DNA of 64,000 nucleotides from positions 316,944,001 through 317,008,000 of the forward strand of contig OZ024741.1 of the NCBI GenBank assembly GCA_964016885.1. Reading direction: 5' to 3'. This stretch comes from Eledone cirrhosa (lineage: Eukaryota). Below, one piece after another: positions 18,202 through 42,285 of the stretch (position 1 is its first letter; each line of letters opens with the position of its first letter). The notes below the pieces were generated by a model, which saw nothing but the letters and a program-made list of their open reading frames with translations, was not told the origin of the DNA and did not search any database. The position numbers were made by a program, and so were the translations under genes.

Positions 18202-18400
18202 TTAAGGGTATGTGAATATTTATTTATAAAACAGCTCTATATTATATTTTATATTTTATCTGATGAAAGCACACCATAATTTAACTTGGTGTCCTTGAAA
18301 TATGTATAATGAAATAAATATGGTTTTATAAATATAGTTTCCATTTGTTAATATATCGTATATATATATATATATATATGCATGTGTGTATGCATGTATG

Positions 18401-20907: not shown

Positions 20908-21009
20908 AAATATACTCTGTCATTCCTATGTGGGAAAAGCACGTTGAGTGCTTGAATTGAATTACATCAATATTTACCGTATATATATATATATATATGT
21001 ATATATAAA

Positions 21010-21451
21010 CATAAGTATGTATACGTACATACATATATGTATACCGACGTACAGTAGTATGTATATACATACATGCACACACATATATATATGTACGTAT
21101 GGGTTTACTGAACATTTATTATATTGCTCGGTTTGTTTGTAAACAAACAGCTCGAATTAAGCCATACAGTGTTCGGCAACCATCGTTGCCATTTTGTTCA
21201 ACACTGACAAAGGAACGATGAATTAGTTTCTAGCTTATTAGCTGTCATCAGCATCGTATACTTTCTAGTCAGTCGATTGAACGTTTGAAAGTATATACTT
21301 TCCTTATGCATATTAACGGCTGAGCAGCTTAATTTGCATATCGAGTGAATTAGTCGGCCGGGCGTACCGAAAACGATAAATATTTGTCGAGTGCTTTTAT
21401 ATCAGTTATAAATATTTACTAGTTGTAACCCAACAATTTTAAATATAACTT

Positions 21452-21452
<1 letters not shown>
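21010..21452 (-). mobile_element. Diverged solo monomer related to the 466-bp retrozyme-like unit
   Basis: Collinear blocks shared with the array unit: gtttactgaacattt..gtaaacaaacag, HHR within an extended stem, aaag..ctttt hairpin, gcag..taatttgcata..gtga..acgataaa. Flanked by (TA)n on both sides. Confidence 0.7.
21216..21256 (-). ncRNA. Hammerhead ribozyme motif (slightly degenerate)
   Basis: Reverse complement CGAUG CUGAUGA C AGCU-AAUA-AGCU A GAAA CUAAUU CAUCG. Confidence 0.7.
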
Positions 21453-21501
<49 letters not shown>

Positions 21502-25497: not shown

Positions 25498-25539
<42 letters not shown>

Positions 25540-25825
25540 AATAACGAAACGAAATTAAATTTCGTTTCGTTTGTAACTCACTTTTGTATGACTGACGCTT
25601 AAACAATTAAATTAAAAATGTACATCCACATATGTATACTGAAATACTAGTATGCATATGAATACACACACGTGTACATATGTAGATGTACCGAGTTTTT
25701 CACTGGACACTTTACTGTGAGTGTCCAGCTATTCTGTATGTAAACACACAGACAAACCGGTTTTTAGAGTCATACTGGTTTTCGAGGAAACACCTTTCCT
25801 CTATTCTCCAGAAAGCCAGACAAGG

Positions 25826-25870
25826 AATATTGGACTAGTTTCGATGTTGTTACATCTCATCAGCAATATT
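25826..25870 (-). ncRNA. Type I minimal hammerhead ribozyme, array unit 1
   Basis: Reverse complement reads AAUAUUG CUGAUGA GAUGU-AACA-ACAUC GAAA CUAG UC CAAUAUU: complete core, 7-bp stem I, 5-bp stem II, palindromic stem III (ACUAGU), GUC cleavage triplet. Confidence 0.88.
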
Positions 25871-26291
25871 TACCTATCTTCCGGCCTTTCTAGAGAATCG
25901 TAAAAGCACATATCGTTATATGCTTTTTCCATGAAAATTAGTAGTGGGCAGACTAATTTGCATAGAGCGTGAGTACGTACCGGTTCAGCGGAGACGATAA
26001 AAACAAATAACGAAACGAAATTAAATTTCGTTTCGTTTGTAACTCACTTTTGTATGACTGACGCTTAAACAATTAAATTAAAAATGTACATCCACATATG
26101 TATACTGAAATACTAGTATGCATATGAATACACACACGTGTACATATGTAGATGTACCGAGTTTTTCACTGGACACTTTACTGTGAGTGTCCAGCTATTC
26201 TGTATGTAAACACACAGACAAACCGGTTTTTAGAGTCATACTGGTTTTCGAGGAAACACCTTTCCTCTATTCTCCAGAAAGCCAGACAAGG

Positions 26292-26336
26292 AATATTGGA
26301 CTAGTTTCGATGTTGTTACATCTCATCAGCAATATT
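26292..26336 (-). ncRNA. Hammerhead ribozyme, array unit 2
   Basis: Identical to unit 1, offset +466. Confidence 0.88.
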
Positions 26337-26757
26337 TACCTATCTTCCGGCCTTTCTAGAGAATCGTAAAAGCACATATCGTTATATGCTTTTTCTATGA
26401 AAATTAGTAGTGGGCAGACTAATTTGCATAGAGCGTGAGTACGTACCGGTTCAGCGGAGACGATAAAAACAAATAACGAAACGAAATTAAATTTCGTTTC
26501 GTTTGTAACTCACTTTTGTATGACTGACGCTTAAACAATTAAATTAAAAATGTACATCCACATATGTATACTGAAATACTAGTATGCATATGAATACACA
26601 CACGTGTACATATGTAGATGTACCGAGTTTTTCACTGGACACTTTACTGTGAGTGTCCAGCTATTCTGTATGTAAACACACAGACAAACCGGTTTTTAGA
26701 GTCATACTGGTTTTCGAGGAAACACCTTTCCTCTATTCTCCAGAAAGCCAGACAAGG

Positions 26758-26802
26758 AATATTGGACTAGTTTCGATGTTGTTACATCTCATCAGCAATA
26801 TT
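26758..26802 (-). ncRNA. Hammerhead ribozyme, array unit 3
   Basis: Identical to unit 1. Confidence 0.88.
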
Positions 26803-27223
26803 TACCTATCTTCCGGCCTTTCTAGAGAATCGTAAAAGCACATATCGTTATATGCTTTTTCCATGAAAATTAGTAGTGGGCAGACTAATTTGCATAGAGC
26901 GTGAGTACGTACCGGTTCAGCGGAGACGATAAAAACAAATAACGAAACGAAATTAAATTTCGTTTCGTTTGTAACTCACTTTTGTATGACTGACGCTTAA
27001 ACAATTAAATTAAAAATGTACATCCACATATGTATACTGAAATACTAGTATGCATATGAATACACACACGTGTACATATGTAGATGTACCGAGTTTTTCA
27101 CTGGACACTTTACTGTGAGTGTCCAGCTATTCTGTATGTAAACACACAGACAAACCGGTTTTTAGAGTCATACTGGTTTTCGAGGAAACACCTTTCCTCT
27201 ATTCTCCAGAAAGCCAGACAAGG

Positions 27224-27268
27224 AATATTGGACTAGTTTCGATGTTGTTACATCTCATCAGCAATATT
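27224..27268 (-). ncRNA. Hammerhead ribozyme, array unit 4
   Basis: Identical to unit 1. Confidence 0.88.
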
Positions 27269-27689
27269 TACCTATCTTCCGGCCTTTCTAGAGAATCGTA
27301 AAAGCACATATCGTTATATGCTTTTTCTATGAAAATTAGTAGTGGGCAGACTAATTTGCATAGAGCGTGAGTACGTACCGGTTCAGCGGAGACGATAAAA
27401 ACAAATAACGAAACGAAATTAAATTTCGTTTCGTTTGTAACTCACTTTTGTATGACTGACGCTTAAACAATTAAATTAAAAATGTACATCCACATATGTA
27501 TACTGAAATACTAGTATGCATATGAATACACACACGTGTACATATGTAGATGTACCGAGTTTTTCACTGGACACTTTACTGTGAGTGTCCAGCTATTCTG
27601 TATGTAAACACACAGACAAACCGGTTTTTAGAGTCATACTGGTTTTCGAGGAAACACCTTTCCTCTATTCTCCAGAAAGCCAGACAAGG

Positions 27690-27734
27690 AATATTGGACT
27701 AGTTTCGATGTTGTTACATCTCATCAGCAATATT
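27690..27734 (-). ncRNA. Hammerhead ribozyme, array unit 5
   Basis: Identical to unit 1. Confidence 0.88.
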
Positions 27735-28097
27735 TACCTATCTTCCGGCCTTTCTAGAGAATCGTAAAAGCACATATCGTTATATGCTTTTTCCATGAAA
27801 ATTAGTAGTGGGCAGACTAATTTGCATAGAGCGTGAGTACGTACCGGTTCAGCGGAGACGATAAAAACAAATAACGAAACGAAATTAAATTTCGTTTCGT
27901 TTGTAACTCACTTTTGTATGACTGACGCTTAAACAATTAAATTAAAAATGTACATCCACATATGTATACTGAAATACTAGTATGCATATGAATACACACA
28001 CGTGTACATATGTAGTCTGCCCACTACTAATTTTCATAGAAAAAGCATATAACGATATGTGCTTTTACGATTCTCTAGAAAGGCCGGAAGATAGGTA

Positions 28098-28142
28098 AAT
28101 ATTGCTGATGAGATGTAACAACATCGAAACTAGTCCAATATT
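28098..28142 (+). ncRNA. Hammerhead ribozyme, inverted arm unit 1
   Basis: aatattgCTGATGAgatgtaacaacatcGAAActagTCcaatatt read directly on the plus strand. Confidence 0.88.
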
Positions 28143-28563
28143 CCTTGTCTGGCTTTCTGGAGAATAGAGGAAAGGTGTTTCCTCGAAAACCAGTATGACT
28201 CTAAAAACCGGTTTGTCTGTGTGTTTACATACAGAATAGCTGGACACTCACAGTAAAGTGTCCAGTGAAAAACTCGGTACATCTACATATGTACACGTGT
28301 ATGTATTCATATGCATACTAGTATTTCAGTATACATATGTGGATGTACATTTTTAATTTAATTGTTTAAGCGTCAGTCATACAAAAGTGAGTTACAAACG
28401 AAACGAAATTTAATTTCGTTTCGTTATTTGTTTTTATCGTCTCCGCTGAACCGGTACGTACTCACGCTCTATGCAAATTAGTCTGCCCACTACTAATTTT
28501 CATGGAAAAAGCATATAACGATATGTGCTTTTACGATTCTCTAGAAAGGCCGGAAGATAGGTA

Positions 28564-28608
28564 AATATTGCTGATGAGATGTAACAACATCGAAACTAGT
28601 CCAATATT
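28564..28608 (+). ncRNA. Hammerhead ribozyme, inverted arm unit 2
   Basis: Identical motif, offset +466. Confidence 0.88.
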
Positions 28609-29029
28609 CCTTGTCTGGCTTTCTGGAGAATAGAGGAAAGGTGTTTCCTCGAAAACCAGTATGACTCTAAAAACCGGTTTGTCTGTGTGTTTACATACAG
28701 AATAGCTGGACACTCACAGTAAAGTGTCCAGTGAAAAACTCGGTACATCTACATATGTACACGTGTGTGTATTCATATGCATACTAGTATTTCAGTATAC
28801 ATATGTGGATGTACATTTTTAATTTAATTGTTTAAGCGTCAGTCATACAAAAGTGAGTTACAAACGAAACGAAATTTAATTTCGTTTCGTTATTTGTTTT
28901 TATCGTCTCCGCTGAACCGGTACGTACTCACGCTCTATGCAAATTAGTCTGCCCACTACTAATTTTCATGGAAAAAGCATATAACGATATGTGCTTTTAC
29001 GATTCTCTAGAAAGGCCGGAAGATAGGTA

Positions 29030-29074
29030 AATATTGCTGATGAGATGTAACAACATCGAAACTAGTCCAATATT
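29030..29074 (+). ncRNA. Hammerhead ribozyme, inverted arm unit 3
   Basis: Identical motif. Confidence 0.88.
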
Positions 29075-29495
29075 CCTTGTCTGGCTTTCTGGAGAATAGA
29101 GGAAAGGTGTTTCCTCGAAAACCAGTATGACTCTAAAAACCGGTTTGTCTGTGTGTTTACATACAGAATAGCTGGACACTCACAGTAAAGTGTCCAGTGA
29201 AAAACTCGGTACATCTACATATGTACACGTGTGTGTATTCATATGCATACTAGTATTTCAGTATACATATGTGGATGTACATTTTTAATTTAATTGTTTA
29301 AGCGTCAGTCATACAAAAGTGAGTTACAAACGAAACGAAATTTAATTTCGTTTCGTTATTTGTTTTTATCGTCTCCGCTGAACCGGTACGTACTCACGCT
29401 CTATGCAAATTAGTCTGCCCACTACTAATTTTCATAGAAAAAGCATATAACGATATGTGCTTTTACGATTCTCTAGAAAGGCCGGAAGATAGGTA

Positions 29496-29540
29496 AATAT
29501 TGCTGATGAGATGTAACAACATCGAAACTAGTCCAATATT
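29496..29540 (+). ncRNA. Hammerhead ribozyme, inverted arm unit 4
   Basis: Identical motif. Confidence 0.88.
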
Positions 29541-29961
29541 CCTTGTCTGGCTTTCTGGAGAATAGAGGAAAGGTGTTTCCTCGAAAACCAGTATGACTCT
29601 AAAAACCGGTTTGTCTGTGTGTTTACATACAGAATAGCTGGACACTCACAGTAAAGTGTCCAGTGAAAAACTCGGTACATCTACATATGTACACGTGTAT
29701 GTATTCATATGCATACTAGTATTTCAGTATACATATGTGGATGTACATTTTTAATTTAATTGTTTAAGCGTCAGTCATACAAAAGTGAGTTACAAACGAA
29801 ACGAAATTTAATTTCGTTTCGTTATTTGTTTTTATCGTCTCCGCTGAACCGGTACGTACTCACGCTCTATGCAAATTAGTCTGCCCACTACTAATTTTCA
29901 TGGAAAAAGCATATAACGATATGTGCTTTTACGATTCTCTAGAAAGGCCGGAAGATAGGTA

Positions 29962-30006
29962 AATATTGCTGATGAGATGTAACAACATCGAAACTAGTCC
30001 AATATT
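29962..30006 (+). ncRNA. Hammerhead ribozyme, inverted arm unit 5
   Basis: Identical motif. Confidence 0.88.
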
Positions 30007-30250
30007 CCTTGTCTGGCTTTCTGGAGAATAGAGGAAAGGTGTTTCCTCGAAAACCAGTATGACTCTAAAAACCGGTTTGTCTGTGTGTTTACATACAGAA
30101 TAGCTGGACACTCACAGTAAAGTGTCCAGTGAAAAACTCGGTACATCTACATATGTACACGTGTGTGTATTCATATGCATACTAGTATTTCAGTATACAT
30201 ATGTGGATGTACATTTTTAATTTAATTGTTTATATATATATATATTTATG

Positions 30251-33912: not shown

Positions 33913-34799
33913 GAAAGGTATAGAAATTGTTGTAGCGAGAAGCTAATAGTATTCCATAACATATATGCGACTATAACGTCAAAATGGGAAAAATAGTTAA
34001 CGTAAGATGTGGGAAAAATAATTCAAACTCATCTCAAATAGAATCAGGATATAAATTCATCCACAGAATTTAGTGAAATCCAGGGAAAAATCAATCGAGC
34101 CTTAACTCATGATAAAATACTCATCCTTCAATTTGGAAAAACTTCAAATGCTCTGTATAGTCTTAAAGACTATTTCATGAAAACTTTCAGTGAAGATCGT
34201 CACGGTTGGATTTCAATCGTCAGCAGAGCTCAACTCGATAGCCAGGACTCTCACAGATTTATATGCCAAAAAGGGAATTTAAAAACTGGCTAGTTCACCA
34301 TCATGCGGGATTATGAAAAACGCACATGAGGAAAACAGGGCTAGTGACGGCAGAATGAGGCGAATGTTTGTTTACAAGAAACAACAGTCAAATACATTCC
34401 GAAAAAAACTCTACAAAAGGAGTTCAGCAAAAAGCAATATTATTGCAGTTTTTATTTAAAAAAACCGGGATTAGTCACAAATAATTTAAGCACTCTAGGA
34501 AAAAAAAATCCGAGTATAAATATATAAATGAAAGGTATAGAAATTGTTGTAGCGAGAAGCTAACAGTATTCCATAACATATATGCGACTATAACGTCAAA
34601 ATGGGAAAAATAGTGAACGTAAGATGTGGGAAAAATAATTCAAACTCATCTCAAAGAGAATCAGGATATAAATTCATCCACAGAATTTAGTGAAATCCAG
34701 GGAAAAATCAATAGAGCCTTAACTCATGATAAAATAAAGTCGATAATACTCATCCTTCAATTTGGAAAAACTTCAAATGCTCTGTATAGTCTTAAAGAC

Positions 34800-34807: not shown

Positions 34808-35520
<713 letters not shown>

Positions 35521-35781
35521 TATTGTCGAGAACAATACATAGGCCAGACCAAAAACAGCCTCCGCCAACGCATGACTGTCCATAGATCCCAAATCAAAAT
35601 ACGGGAATACAGGAAAATACCACTGAGTGAACACATTGATACCTGTGCCGCCCAAAATCATCCCAACTTCAGAATCTTTCCCCTTTACAAATTTAAAGAT
35701 AATGCCACCCACACCCAGCGCATCAGCAAGGAATCTTACTTCATTAACAAATACGGACCCCGTCTAAACACTTCTCCCTAA
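35521..35781 (+). pseudogene. PLE GIY-YIG endonuclease C-terminal fragment
   Basis: [39 protein letters not shown]: YIG, R, E and terminal LN residues typical of PLE GIY-YIG. Confidence 0.8.
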
Positions 35782-38924: not shown

Positions 38925-41900
38925 CACTCGGGCCATTCTTGCTTCTCTCACCCATCTTTCAACAAAATGCTGGGAAGAGAGCACTTCCCTCTCTACTCTG
39001 ATTTTCCTTTTCAAATGAAATTTGAAAAAGTCAATCAGGGCATCACCGAAGAGCTAAGTACTCGTCTTCAGCCCTTTCAAACGTGTCCATCATACTATCT
39101 CTTTCGCCGTGGCCACCAGACAGATAAAAACTGCCTGCCCTTCCCGGCTAAAGGAAGAGGGCGGGGCAATCCTCACGGATCCGTCCTACACGCGACAGCA
39201 GGTGTTCGACATAAACCCACAAGTCAGCAATTTTCGGACACTGGACGAGTGCGTGCAGGACGATTTCGTCGCCCTGCGCGCATCTCGGACATGCCCGGCT
39301 GACGGCACCCCCAGGCCTGTAGAGTTTATCCCGTATGGCAAGGCTCCTTGGTAGCACTGCCAGGCGAGAGATTTCTGGAAGTTGTCCATAGGCCCCGGCC
39401 CGAAAGTTCTTCCGAAGAGATTGGCTAGTTGATTTTCGTCGACGCCTAGAGTTTCCCCAAGTGCGTCGTCGCTCTTCCTCTCCACTAATCCTCTATAGAA
39501 CGCCGAGGTGGAGTTTCCACCGATCATATTACCCGATTGGTCGAGGGCTGTGAGCGCCTGAAGACATTACAGTCTCCAGGCGATCCCTCTCGGTCTTCGC
39601 TTGACCCAGGACTGCAGCTCCGTCAAGGAAACGAGCTGGGGAAAGAGGTGTCTAGCAAACGGCGACCATACCTGATCACCGTCGAGGAAGAGGTGGAGAT
39701 ATCGTAGCCTGAGCGCGTGTCTGCGCATCATCAGCCACGGCATGCCTAGCCCTCCACGTAGCGGGTGTTGACAACAGATGGACCTCCTGACCATCGGAGC
39801 GCGTCCCTTCCACAAAAAGCGAAAGAGCAAACGCTCCAGCGCAGTCAGGCGGGGCTTAGGACAAGGTACGACGGTCAGGCGGTAGCAGATGACAGACGCG
39901 ATGTACGCTTTAGCCACCTCCGCTCGACCTTTCGGGGATAGCTTCCTCTCCGCCCATTTCTGGGTGAGAGAAGCCACCCTGCTCGTCACCTCGTCCCAGT
40001 TTTTGTCCGTCTGGAGGTCCTGACCGAACCAGACCCCTAGCATTTAACCGGTCCGTCCGTCCAGCGTCCGACGACGCTGTTGGACGGCATGGACCTGCCT
40101 CTTCAGGTGTCGAGCTGCAGGCCCACTGACTTTTCCTGGTTGATCATTGCTCCTGTCACCGCTTCGTATTCTCTTAGTGTAGTGCAGATCGCCTCGATGT
40201 GTTTGGCGTTCGACACCACTACGGTGACACCGTCCGCATATGCTGACACGGATCTTCTGCATCCTAGTTCACGCGGGACGCCCCTCAACGTCTCCAGTTT
40301 GTACAGTAATGGCTCGAGAGTCAATACGTACAAGAGGGACGAGAGGGGACATCCTTGGCGGACCGAGCGCATGATGTTGAACGGTTCCGAAAGGTGACCG
40401 TTCACTCTCATCACAGAGCAGATTTCGCTGTGCATGGCAGCGATCCAGCCTCTGAAGACGGGCCCAAAGCCAGCCGCCCTCAGGACTGCCGCTAGGTAAC
40501 GATGGTCGAAAGCTTTCGACTGATCTAAATTGATCAAGGACGCACCCGTGCCAGGTTCCCTAGCTACCCTCTCTACGATGTATCGCATGAGGTGGAGGTT
40601 GTCGTGGATGGATCTGTCGGGAATGGCGTATGTCTGCGCCTCTCCAACCATACCACCAATGACAAGCGCCAACCTCTTTGCTAGCTCCTTGGCCAAAATC
40701 TTTAACTCTGCGTTTAGCAGAGTTTTGAGCCTGAAATTATCTATGTTATCCCCCTTGTTCGCATCCTTTCTCAGCAGCGCCACCGCTCCTCGGCTCACAT
40801 AGCTGGGAATTCTCCCGTTCTGTTGCCAGTTACAGTAGACGTCCGCCAAGAGGCCTCCGAACAAGTCTGGCATCTGTACGTAAAGTTCATAGGGCAGAAA
40901 ATCCAAACCAGGCTATTTACCCCTTATGCAGCCAGTTATTTCCTCCTGTACTCCAGCAGCTGTTCTCGGCTTTTCTCAACACTCCGCCTCAGTGGCCGAG
41001 AGCCGCGGCAGTCCGTCGAGGTAGACACTAAAGTCCATCCCTCGATCCGGCCCGCCGCTACCCCCGAGCAGCTGAGCGAAGTGTCGCTGAAAAGCTTCAC
41101 ACATTTACCCGGCATCGAGTAGTATGCGCCCGTCGTGGTCCACCAAAGACCGGATCGTGGCTTTGTTGCCACGACGCGCCTCCGCCACTCGGGCCCATTG
41201 AACGGCTTTTTTCGTCCCCTCGTGTCTGAGAGCACGCACCCTACCTCTGACAACGCAGCCTTCGTGCTTTGCATTGAAGAATTGGTCAAGGGCCAATTTC
41301 GCCGCAAGTACCTCGGTCGCGATGCCTTTGCTAAGCGCCTCGTCTAATTTTCTAACTAGTTCTCCCTCTGCTCTATTTTTCTCTATAGCTAAAGCCTTAC
41401 TAAACCTAATTGTCTCTATTCTAATCGCTCTTTTCAGAGCAAACCACCACGTGTTGTTGACGATGGCGCCTGTCAACGTTCGCTTAACTAGTTGGCTAAT
41501 CCGGTCTCTGTAGGCCTTGCGCGCTGGTAAGGACGCGTTTAGCTTCCAGTAGCCGGGTCCTCGTCTATGAAGCCTATCTAAGTCAAGCACACAGATCACG
41601 AATTTGTGGTCCGTGTAGCTGACAATCTTGAATTGTGGACAGCCTATGCTAGACCTATCTATTTTCCTACAAAATACTCTATCTAGATATGATCTGGATG
41701 ACCCGATGCGGTTTGTCCAAGTCCACATTGGTACATTCGGGTAATCCAATCGGTACCTGTCAGACAGTTCAAAACGCCTGAGCAGGTTGGTGAGGCTCTT
41801 GCACCCTCCTCCCCTATCCGCTAATCCCACACAGTCCCAGCGTGCATCTAAGATCCCGTTCCAATCGCCCACTAACACTAAAGAGCGGGATGTTCCTAGA

Positions 41901-42285
41901 AAGGTCTCCAGACGCCGGAAGAAATCAGGCCGCCCTGCTCCTGTCGGGGCATAGACGGCCACTAGCCTGAAAGCTTGCCCATCTCCGCTGGTCACGTCCA
42001 GCAACACCAACTTACCTTCTGGGTCCAGGAAGATGGCCCGTATGGCGAGATCCAAACCTCTCCGAAAAAGCACAGCAACTGCCCCGCCGACCCAGGACGG
42101 CTGGGAGATGCGTACACATCGTAGCCGCCGAAGATCGGTGCGAAGGCCCGTGCTTCGGAGATTCTGGTCTCGCTGATGGCCACTACATCTATGTTTAGTG
42201 ACCTGAGGTCGTTGAGCAGGTGGCCCTGCTTCCATGACGACCCCAAGCCACGCGCATTTATGCTGCCTATTCTTAGTGAGGTCAT
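38925..42285 (-). pseudogene. Tx1-like ORF2 (APE endonuclease plus reverse transcriptase), several frameshifts
   Basis: SINARGL, VAISETR, VAVYAP, GDWN, SYLDRVF, TDH (APE); LDQSKAFD, VRQGCPLSSLLY, AYADG (RT); GGLGMP; CPRC..LHALVQCP. Confidence 0.9.

Follow-up and report, generated by a model that had tools for sequence, protein, structure and literature searches.

A truncated, probably dead copy of an abundant hammerhead retrozyme in Eledone cirrhosa: a likely U6-type internal promoter and likely mobilisation by Penelope-like elements

We analysed a hammerhead-bearing segment at positions 21006-21381 (minus strand) of a 64,000-nucleotide stretch of Eledone cirrhosa DNA (GenBank assembly GCA_964016885.1, contig OZ024741.1, positions 316,944,001 to 317,008,000 of the forward strand), hereafter referred to as the window. 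In our judgement the segment is probably a truncated and likely dead copy of an abundant non-LTR retrozyme, which is likely transcribed from a U6-type promoter within its own unit and likely copied into (TA)n targets by the RT/GIY-YIG protein of a Penelope-like element (PLE). The locus itself is an ordinary decayed copy, and the findings on its family, designated A/B, bear on which enzyme mobilises animal retrozymes and on what transcribes them. Beyond what the first-pass annotation of this DNA had described, the analysis brings in the Penelope-type insertion anatomy, the match of a conserved octamer block to a U6-type promoter, and about 75 bp that belong to another family. The locus is laid out as follows.

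20980..21005: (TA)n-type target adjoining the B1 arm at its 3' end
21006..21381, minus strand: B1 retrozyme copy of 0.9 unit (376 bp; unit about 429 bp), 5'-truncated, delimited by flank comparison among copies
21378..21456, plus strand: 3' tail of family D (a different hammerhead repeat), 98.8% identity, ending in (TA)n
21455..21498: (TA)n target adjoining the D piece at its 3' end

The interval 21010-21452, formerly taken as a single element, therefore holds a B1 copy (21006-21381) and a piece of family D (21378-21456), joined 5'-to-5' with an overlap of 4 nt, AAAT. The 3' end of the B1 copy lies at the tail-less end site of its family (u223) and is followed by (TA)n, and no ORF of at least 120 aa was found over 21006-21381. 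The D piece looks younger, with 1 difference in 82 nt from a copy at locus L097, against about 4% for the B1 copy (12 substitutions relative to the B1 majority over 21085-21381). No second copy of the B1/D junction was found among 40 scored candidates (of 4021).

Other elements were observed in the window. An older family D copy (79%) at 18207-18366 (plus strand) ends at the D short site in (TA)n, and hammerhead copies of family C, which often forms inverted pairs, lie at about 9100-9150 (minus) and about 59660-59760 (plus); the latter family has CUGAUGA UUUCU...AGAAU GAAA, a long helix III and U-U at 10.1-11.1. Another hammerhead-like motif, with a long stem II, is located at about 34200-34230 (minus). 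At 40106-42319 (minus) and 53607-54865 (plus) we noted LINE-like remnants, an RT with an upstream endonuclease/exonuclease/phosphatase domain and a second RT.

The segment had been described as a solo relative collinear with the 466-bp unit of a nearby array. Collinearity was borne out, since the local alignment scored 174 against a mean of 33 and a maximum of 63 for 500 dinucleotide shuffles (0/500 as high), and still 114 against a shuffle maximum of 48 after removal of the TA-rich head. The word solo has to be given up: 4021 first-look candidates were found genome-wide (3.0 Gb), the best of them 94-96% identical, on many chromosomes. By pattern search the genome contains 881 exact B1 cores; the octamer-plus-hammerhead pattern excluding A and B1 gave 21,888 matches, with 99 B-type among the 100 matches listed, and a further pattern gave 3,877 matches, A-type among the 100 matches listed and A2 in the loci read, while the reversed-pattern controls gave 0 matches. 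The family is also abundant in contigs of a second organism (3007 contigs).

Six subfamilies, A1, A2 and B1-B4, were resolved in 168 segments, with identities of 97% for A1/A2, 81-95% among B1-B4 and 58-60% for A versus B, the B2-B4 and A2 segments being chosen by pattern and those of A1 and B1 by overall similarity. The units are 422-484 bp long with a GC content of 0.35-0.39 and form partial tandems of up to about 6 units, and no ORF was found in the unit or between tandem units. A type I hammerhead core is retained in all six subfamilies, with the cut sites GUC (A1), GUU (A2 and B1) and GUA (B2-B4), and with G-C in A, U-U in B2-B4 and C-A in B1 at position 10.1-11.1. The 466-bp array belongs to the sister clade A1, about 59% identical to the unit of the window copy, and is composed of two inverted arms.

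25537..28015, minus strand: left arm of the array, clade A1, 5.3 units; its end, at tail site u296, runs into (TA)n
28013..30232, plus strand: inverted right arm of the array, clade A1, 4.8 units; its end, at short site u233, runs into (TA)n

Variants along this array (25537-30232) recur periodically, in every second unit of the left arm (u369) and every third unit of the right arm (u369 and u166), as if they could come from dimer and trimer templates; recombination or assembly is the alternative. A highly diverged third octamer-plus-hammerhead element was observed in one copy at L120:1466-1572 (minus), with stem II AUAGCU/GCCAU and a CAUGUA site.

The hammerhead of the window copy runs from 21257 to 21215 on the minus strand and reads ACGAUG-CUGAUGA-C AGCU aaua AGCU A-GAAA CUA AUU-CAUCGU, with the following parts.

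21268..21282, minus strand: 5' arm of the outer extended stem I
21252..21257, minus strand: 5' strand of stem I, ACGAUG (B1 majority ACGGUG)
21245..21251, minus strand: core CUGAUGA
21231..21244, minus strand: stem-loop II, C-AGCU-aaua-AGCU-A, with the C10.1-A11.1 mismatch
21221..21230, minus strand: GAAA and minimal palindromic helix III, CUA-AUU (family CUA-GUU)
21196..21220, minus strand: 3' strand of stem I, CAUCGU (21215-21220), and 3' arm of the extended stem (21196-21208)

The stems reported earlier, CGAUG/CAUCG for stem I and AGCU/AGCU for stem II, were found as quoted on the minus strand with the core at 21245-21251, and both arms of the extended stem could be placed at 21196-21208 and 21268-21282. 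The statement that the core is kept applies to CUGAUGA and GAAA and fails at position 10.1-11.1 (C-A) and at the cleavage site, which is AUU in the window copy and GUU in 27 of 30 B1 segments; the predicted cut falls between 21221 and 21220. In addition, the change G16.2>A at 21223, a rare one seen in 2 of 35 B1 copies, breaks the pair with C15.2. Where a canonical active hammerhead has G10.1-C11.1, C15.2-G16.2 and a favourable NUH site, this copy thus presents C-A, C-A and AUU, and for these three reasons it is probably dead. The Rfam hammerhead models gave no match to the window copy up to E 10, and the whole window gave 0 Rfam matches at gathering score; the array unit matches Hammerhead_HH9 with E 1.8e-8, below the gathering score.

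Covariation was analysed using an alignment of 43 real copies and 23 named pairs, with L120 and L180 excluded. The named pairs were paired in 90.2%, compared with 33.6-47.6% in slid controls. The covariation score, computed over two clades and six subfamilies with few independent lineages, was 0.324 against at most 0.109 in the slid controls, and 9 of the 23 pairs changed on both sides, a count not above the shuffle control (9.3). Between the A1 and B1 majorities, 10 pairs were altered on both sides, 9 of them still pairing; A1/A2 contribute A-U to U-A in stem II, and the B subfamilies contribute A-U, G-U and U-G in stem I, with 10.1-11.1 as the exception to covarying pairing. The covariation anticipated among homologues was indeed observed, and the proposal of an old and diversified family, not a one-off satellite, holds good: the predicted fold is conserved over sequence across its members. 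Circular monomers are predicted to fold much better than their shuffles, with z values of -6.9 to -10.4 from 25 shuffles per unit, although a TA/CA hairpin inside the unit inflates these values.

Selection on the fold, which had been read from this very copy, is another matter. In 35 B1 copies, mutations were counted at 8/455 in the catalytic core, 166/8435 at other non-CpG sites and 5/280 in the octamer. Since the B1 core drifts like the remainder, selection would act on source lineages only, the inserted copies being neutral.

The mode of insertion was examined on the ends of the copies. On the RNA strand, the 5' ends of the arms vary and their 3' ends fall at two fixed sites, short and tail, which lie at u220-223 and about u274 in B1 and at u228-233 and u296-303 in A, with equivalent sites in B2-B4 and D. 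Canonical ends were followed by (TA)n in 106 of 116 cases. Among 76 head-to-head arm pairs, 45 had both 3' ends canonical, and under end classes set after the data had been seen these comprised 44 short plus tail, 1 short plus short and 0 tail plus tail. The array of the window follows this one-arm-each rule, which across families also fits the B1 arm (short site) and the D piece (D tail site). Linear monomers ending at the cut site were rejected as templates because the 5' ends show no pile-up there (13/152 in u1-30, p 0.21); together with arms of up to 5-6 units, this scatter fits a circular or uncut multimeric template.

Two independent RNAs were likewise rejected as the source of the two arms, because in all 27 pairs whose arms both carry a hammerhead the subfamily is the same, often down to finer variants, and clades A and B are mixed in 0 of the 76 pairs. 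On the same counts, and given that the D piece looks younger, it is more likely that the join of B1 and D in the window arose later, by nested insertion or by deletion, than in one event with two templates; inverted repeats may be readily deleted, which bears on this join.

Two 3' end sites, a tail on one arm, 5' truncation, an inverted upstream copy and a (TA)n target are all as expected of a PLE-mobilised element. According to the text available, PLEs leave inverted, 5'-truncated copies with a one-sided tail in (TA)n targets (PMC8557442), cut and extend both target strands, and carry a tail signature, unique to them, that lies between two internal RT start sites, while hammerhead cleavage is dispensable for insertion in vitro (PMC11167929). 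We therefore consider it likely that the A/B retrozymes are mobilised by Penelope elements, and the rule seen in 44 of 45 pairs would mark two RT start sites for a Neptune protein. The evidence presented here is insertion anatomy, and the earlier link of animal retrozymes with PLEs, as far as the accessible sources go, is one of co-occurrence and phylogeny.

We next describe the putative promoter, for which two elements were recognised in the window copy.

21329..21340, minus strand: octamer block TATGCAAATTA, last base altered (G>A) in the window copy, matching an element of host U6, U6atac and MRP genes
21291..21299, minus strand: TATA-like box AG-TATATAC, 42 nt after the octamer start

The octamer itself was located at 21332-21339, in agreement with the first description of a conserved block. 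The aaag..ctttt hairpin described at the same time overlaps the TATA-like box; subfamily B3 lacks its right arm and retains the box. The sequence TATGCAAATT is the joint-longest invariant run across the six A and B units, and is common to A1 and B1, neither of which was chosen for that run. The 12-mer TATGCAAATTAG, with at most 1 mismatch, was found at -77 to -79 of the one MRP gene, the top one of 8 U6atac loci and 3 independent U6 loci, all of which have a TATA near -31; it was absent from this position in the genes for RNase P, U1 (5) and U2 (3) and in 4 U6 copies of lower score, and 10 of 14 extra U6 loci fell outside the 5' pattern and hence were unscored. The background was 8 matches in 699,884 nt. 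AG-YATATA is retained in 153 of 168 segments at 41-42 nt after the octamer start, compared with 46-47 nt in the host genes, the spacing in the repeats being about 5 nt shorter. The octamer is a general POU site. As a general trait of host hammerhead repeats it was rejected, for it occurs within 200 nt upstream in none of the 15 copies of family C and none of the 8 of family D. A U1/U2-type (newt-like) promoter was also rejected, there being no convincing match upstream of host U1/U2 (best nominal p 0.04 in 24 comparisons).

Taken by its match, the octamer plus TATA is likely an internal U6-type promoter, with a predicted start site near 21267 in the window copy if used as in U6. The predicted start lies 8-29 nt before the core, and the covarying outer stem uses sequence upstream of it; the selected RNA must therefore span units. 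Runs of T5-T7 in each unit should stop Pol III before the next ribozyme, so that either use of Pol II or leaky termination has to be supposed. The octamer match defines a candidate for the promoter and for the start site, and offers a reason for the tandem form. As to the host snRNA genes themselves (L231-L299), two promoter types were observed: TCART near -57 to -66 in U1, U2 and RNase P, and TATGCAAATKAG at -78 in U6, U6atac and MRP, the latter element being a candidate for the native U6 promoter of this animal. In one U6 array copy (L261), the sequence between octamer and TATA is different and the element is shifted to -271.

The same module could belong to a SINE-like non-autonomous PLE, with a linear Pol III transcript extending to a T-run, a ribozyme that trims the 5' end or is vestigial, no circle, and multimers as rare read-through. 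A start so close to the core would suit such an element, as would the T5-T7 run that coincides with the tail end or closely precedes it in each of the subfamilies listed, the weak-looking B cores, and the dispensability of cleavage for PLE insertion in vitro (PMC11167929, in its accessible part). We regard it as unlikely, because many arms cross the promoter and exceed one unit, with 5' ends scattered over the whole unit, because the B tail ends 6-8 nt past the T-run, and because the covarying outer stem requires sequence upstream of the predicted start.

Potential helpers for a retrozyme mobilised by PLEs are present, with 10,596 GIY-YIG candidates in the genome. The locus L151 encodes a 938-aa frame with RT and GIY-YIG and a Cys-rich linker, of the Neptune type by the description given in the available text of PMC8557442. 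Members of its family terminate in (TA)n at two sites separated by 68 nt, and the L151 PLE end bears a weak likeness to the tail end of the retrozymes (0/300 shuffles for B4, p 0.07 for B1 and p 0.35 for A1, within 9 comparisons). In the terminal repeat of this near-intact Neptune-type PLE (G000:C1, about 145.87 Mb) we observed a hammerhead-like motif, UUGAAAA...GAAACCGGU, which resembles the U3-A8 core variant in the accessible part of PMC4209133. A second PLE family (L154, L155, L158, L164 and L166) has a minimal hammerhead 3' of the ORF, also with U-U at 10.1-11.1. Within the window, a 3' fragment of PLE GIY-YIG, 50% identical to L151, adjoins a long (TA)n at 35500-35772 (plus).

With such ends, the copies might instead be 5'-truncated terminal repeats (pLTRs) of an undiscovered autonomous PLE and no independent retrozyme. 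The PLE-like end anatomy is in line with this, as are the minimal hammerheads of PLE terminal repeats (PMC4209133, in part), and just 50 of the 10,596 GIY-YIG candidates were inspected (30 + 20); none of these 50 loci showed a PLE whose terminal repeat is an A or B unit. The A/B units hold no RT plus GIY-YIG ORF between pLTRs as an autonomous PLE does, and run head-to-tail without any ORF for up to about 6 units. Moreover, the A/B copies near PLE ORFs (L145, L161 and L162) are separate insertions, and the terminal repeats observed are non-homologous to them by blastn. This origin is accordingly rated as quite improbable.

Tandem arrays of near-identical units might suggest ordinary satellite DNA spread by DNA-level copying, with a ribozyme-like fold by chance, yet the dispersal over many chromosomes, the covariation and the HH9 match of the array unit speak against it, and the strand-specific 3' ends with the 44/45 short-plus-tail asymmetry already refute it. 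Nor can the window locus credibly be a domesticated functional ribozyme under host selection: stems I and II still pair and a hammerhead-like fold is the MFE of the copy (z -2.5), but it is less than one unit long, 4% from its subfamily majority with changes in the cleavage helix and the promoter block, has no Rfam hammerhead match, and belongs to a subfamily that decays neutrally.

A retrozyme mobilised by PLEs would be propagated in the following way. Tandem units would be transcribed from the internal octamer plus TATA with read-through into the next unit, by which a promoter normally upstream of the RNA comes to be carried inside the RNA. Hammerheads with a 2-bp palindromic helix III would cleave most efficiently in dimeric form, and the RNA of unit length set free in this way may circularise. 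The PLE protein would nick both strands of (TA)n and start reverse transcription at two sites 50-70 nt apart, on circular or uncut multimeric RNA as template. Master lineages would be selected for fold and promoter, and the inserted copies would drift. Cleavage may be unnecessary, given that B1 has spread in spite of U17 and C10.1-A11.1. A more far-reaching version is offered only tentatively, and we hold it to be rather doubtful as a whole: a retrozyme superfamily of more than 25,000 copies would have captured a gene-external U6/MRP-type promoter, made heritable through tandem or circular RNA, a dimeric Neptune PLE would prime two strands at two RNA sites, and the window would hold a rare case with arms of two families (B1 short, D tail).

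In the openly accessible literature, we found neither a published description of the A/B repeat family nor a published U6-type promoter in a retrozyme. The closest known system is that of the metazoan non-LTR retrozymes (Cervera and de la Pena 2020, PMC7229834), which in the available text share tandem units of the 150-450-bp class, GC under 45% (here 35-39%), a type I hammerhead with short palindromic helix III, no ORF, a highly self-paired predicted circle and coexistence with PLEs. By these sequence marks the A/B family is classed as a non-LTR retrozyme. It differs in its units of 422-484 bp, the conserved octamer plus TATA, U-U or C-A at 10.1-11.1 in clade B, and inverted two-arm insertions with a one-sided tail, the word 'inverted' being absent from the accessible text of PMC7229834; here, both the circles and the cleavage are predicted. 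As to the mismatch, U10.1-U11.1 is described as the best-tolerated one in natural hammerheads (Perreault 2011, PMC3088659, accessible passage); B2-B4 share it, whereas B1 has C-A, which that passage does not cover.

With Neptune-type PLEs and pLTR hammerheads, as given in the accessible parts of PMC8557442, PMC11167929 and PMC4209133, the family shares 5' truncation, partial tandems, an inverted upstream copy, a tail at one end, (TA)n targets and a hammerhead upstream of the 3' end sites. In contrast to them, A/B units are without ORF, have a tail of 50-70 nt versus 30-40, and show no homology to the pLTRs inspected. A recent preprint (bioRxiv 10.64898/2026.07.22.740005) reaches the same conclusion on the helper, treating retrozymes as non-autonomous PLE derivatives, and also finds solo monomers common; it differs in relying on co-occurrence and pLTR phylogeny, mainly in vertebrates, and the words 'tail', 'promoter' and 'mollus' are absent from its available text. 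Finally, newt satellite 2 (Coats, Zhang, Epstein 1994, as cited in the accessible part of PMC2220036) is likewise a hammerhead tandem repeat with an internal snRNA-type promoter; the newt promoter is cited as a Pol II snRNA promoter, whereas the match found here is with the upstream regions of U6, U6atac and MRP and not with those of U1/U2.
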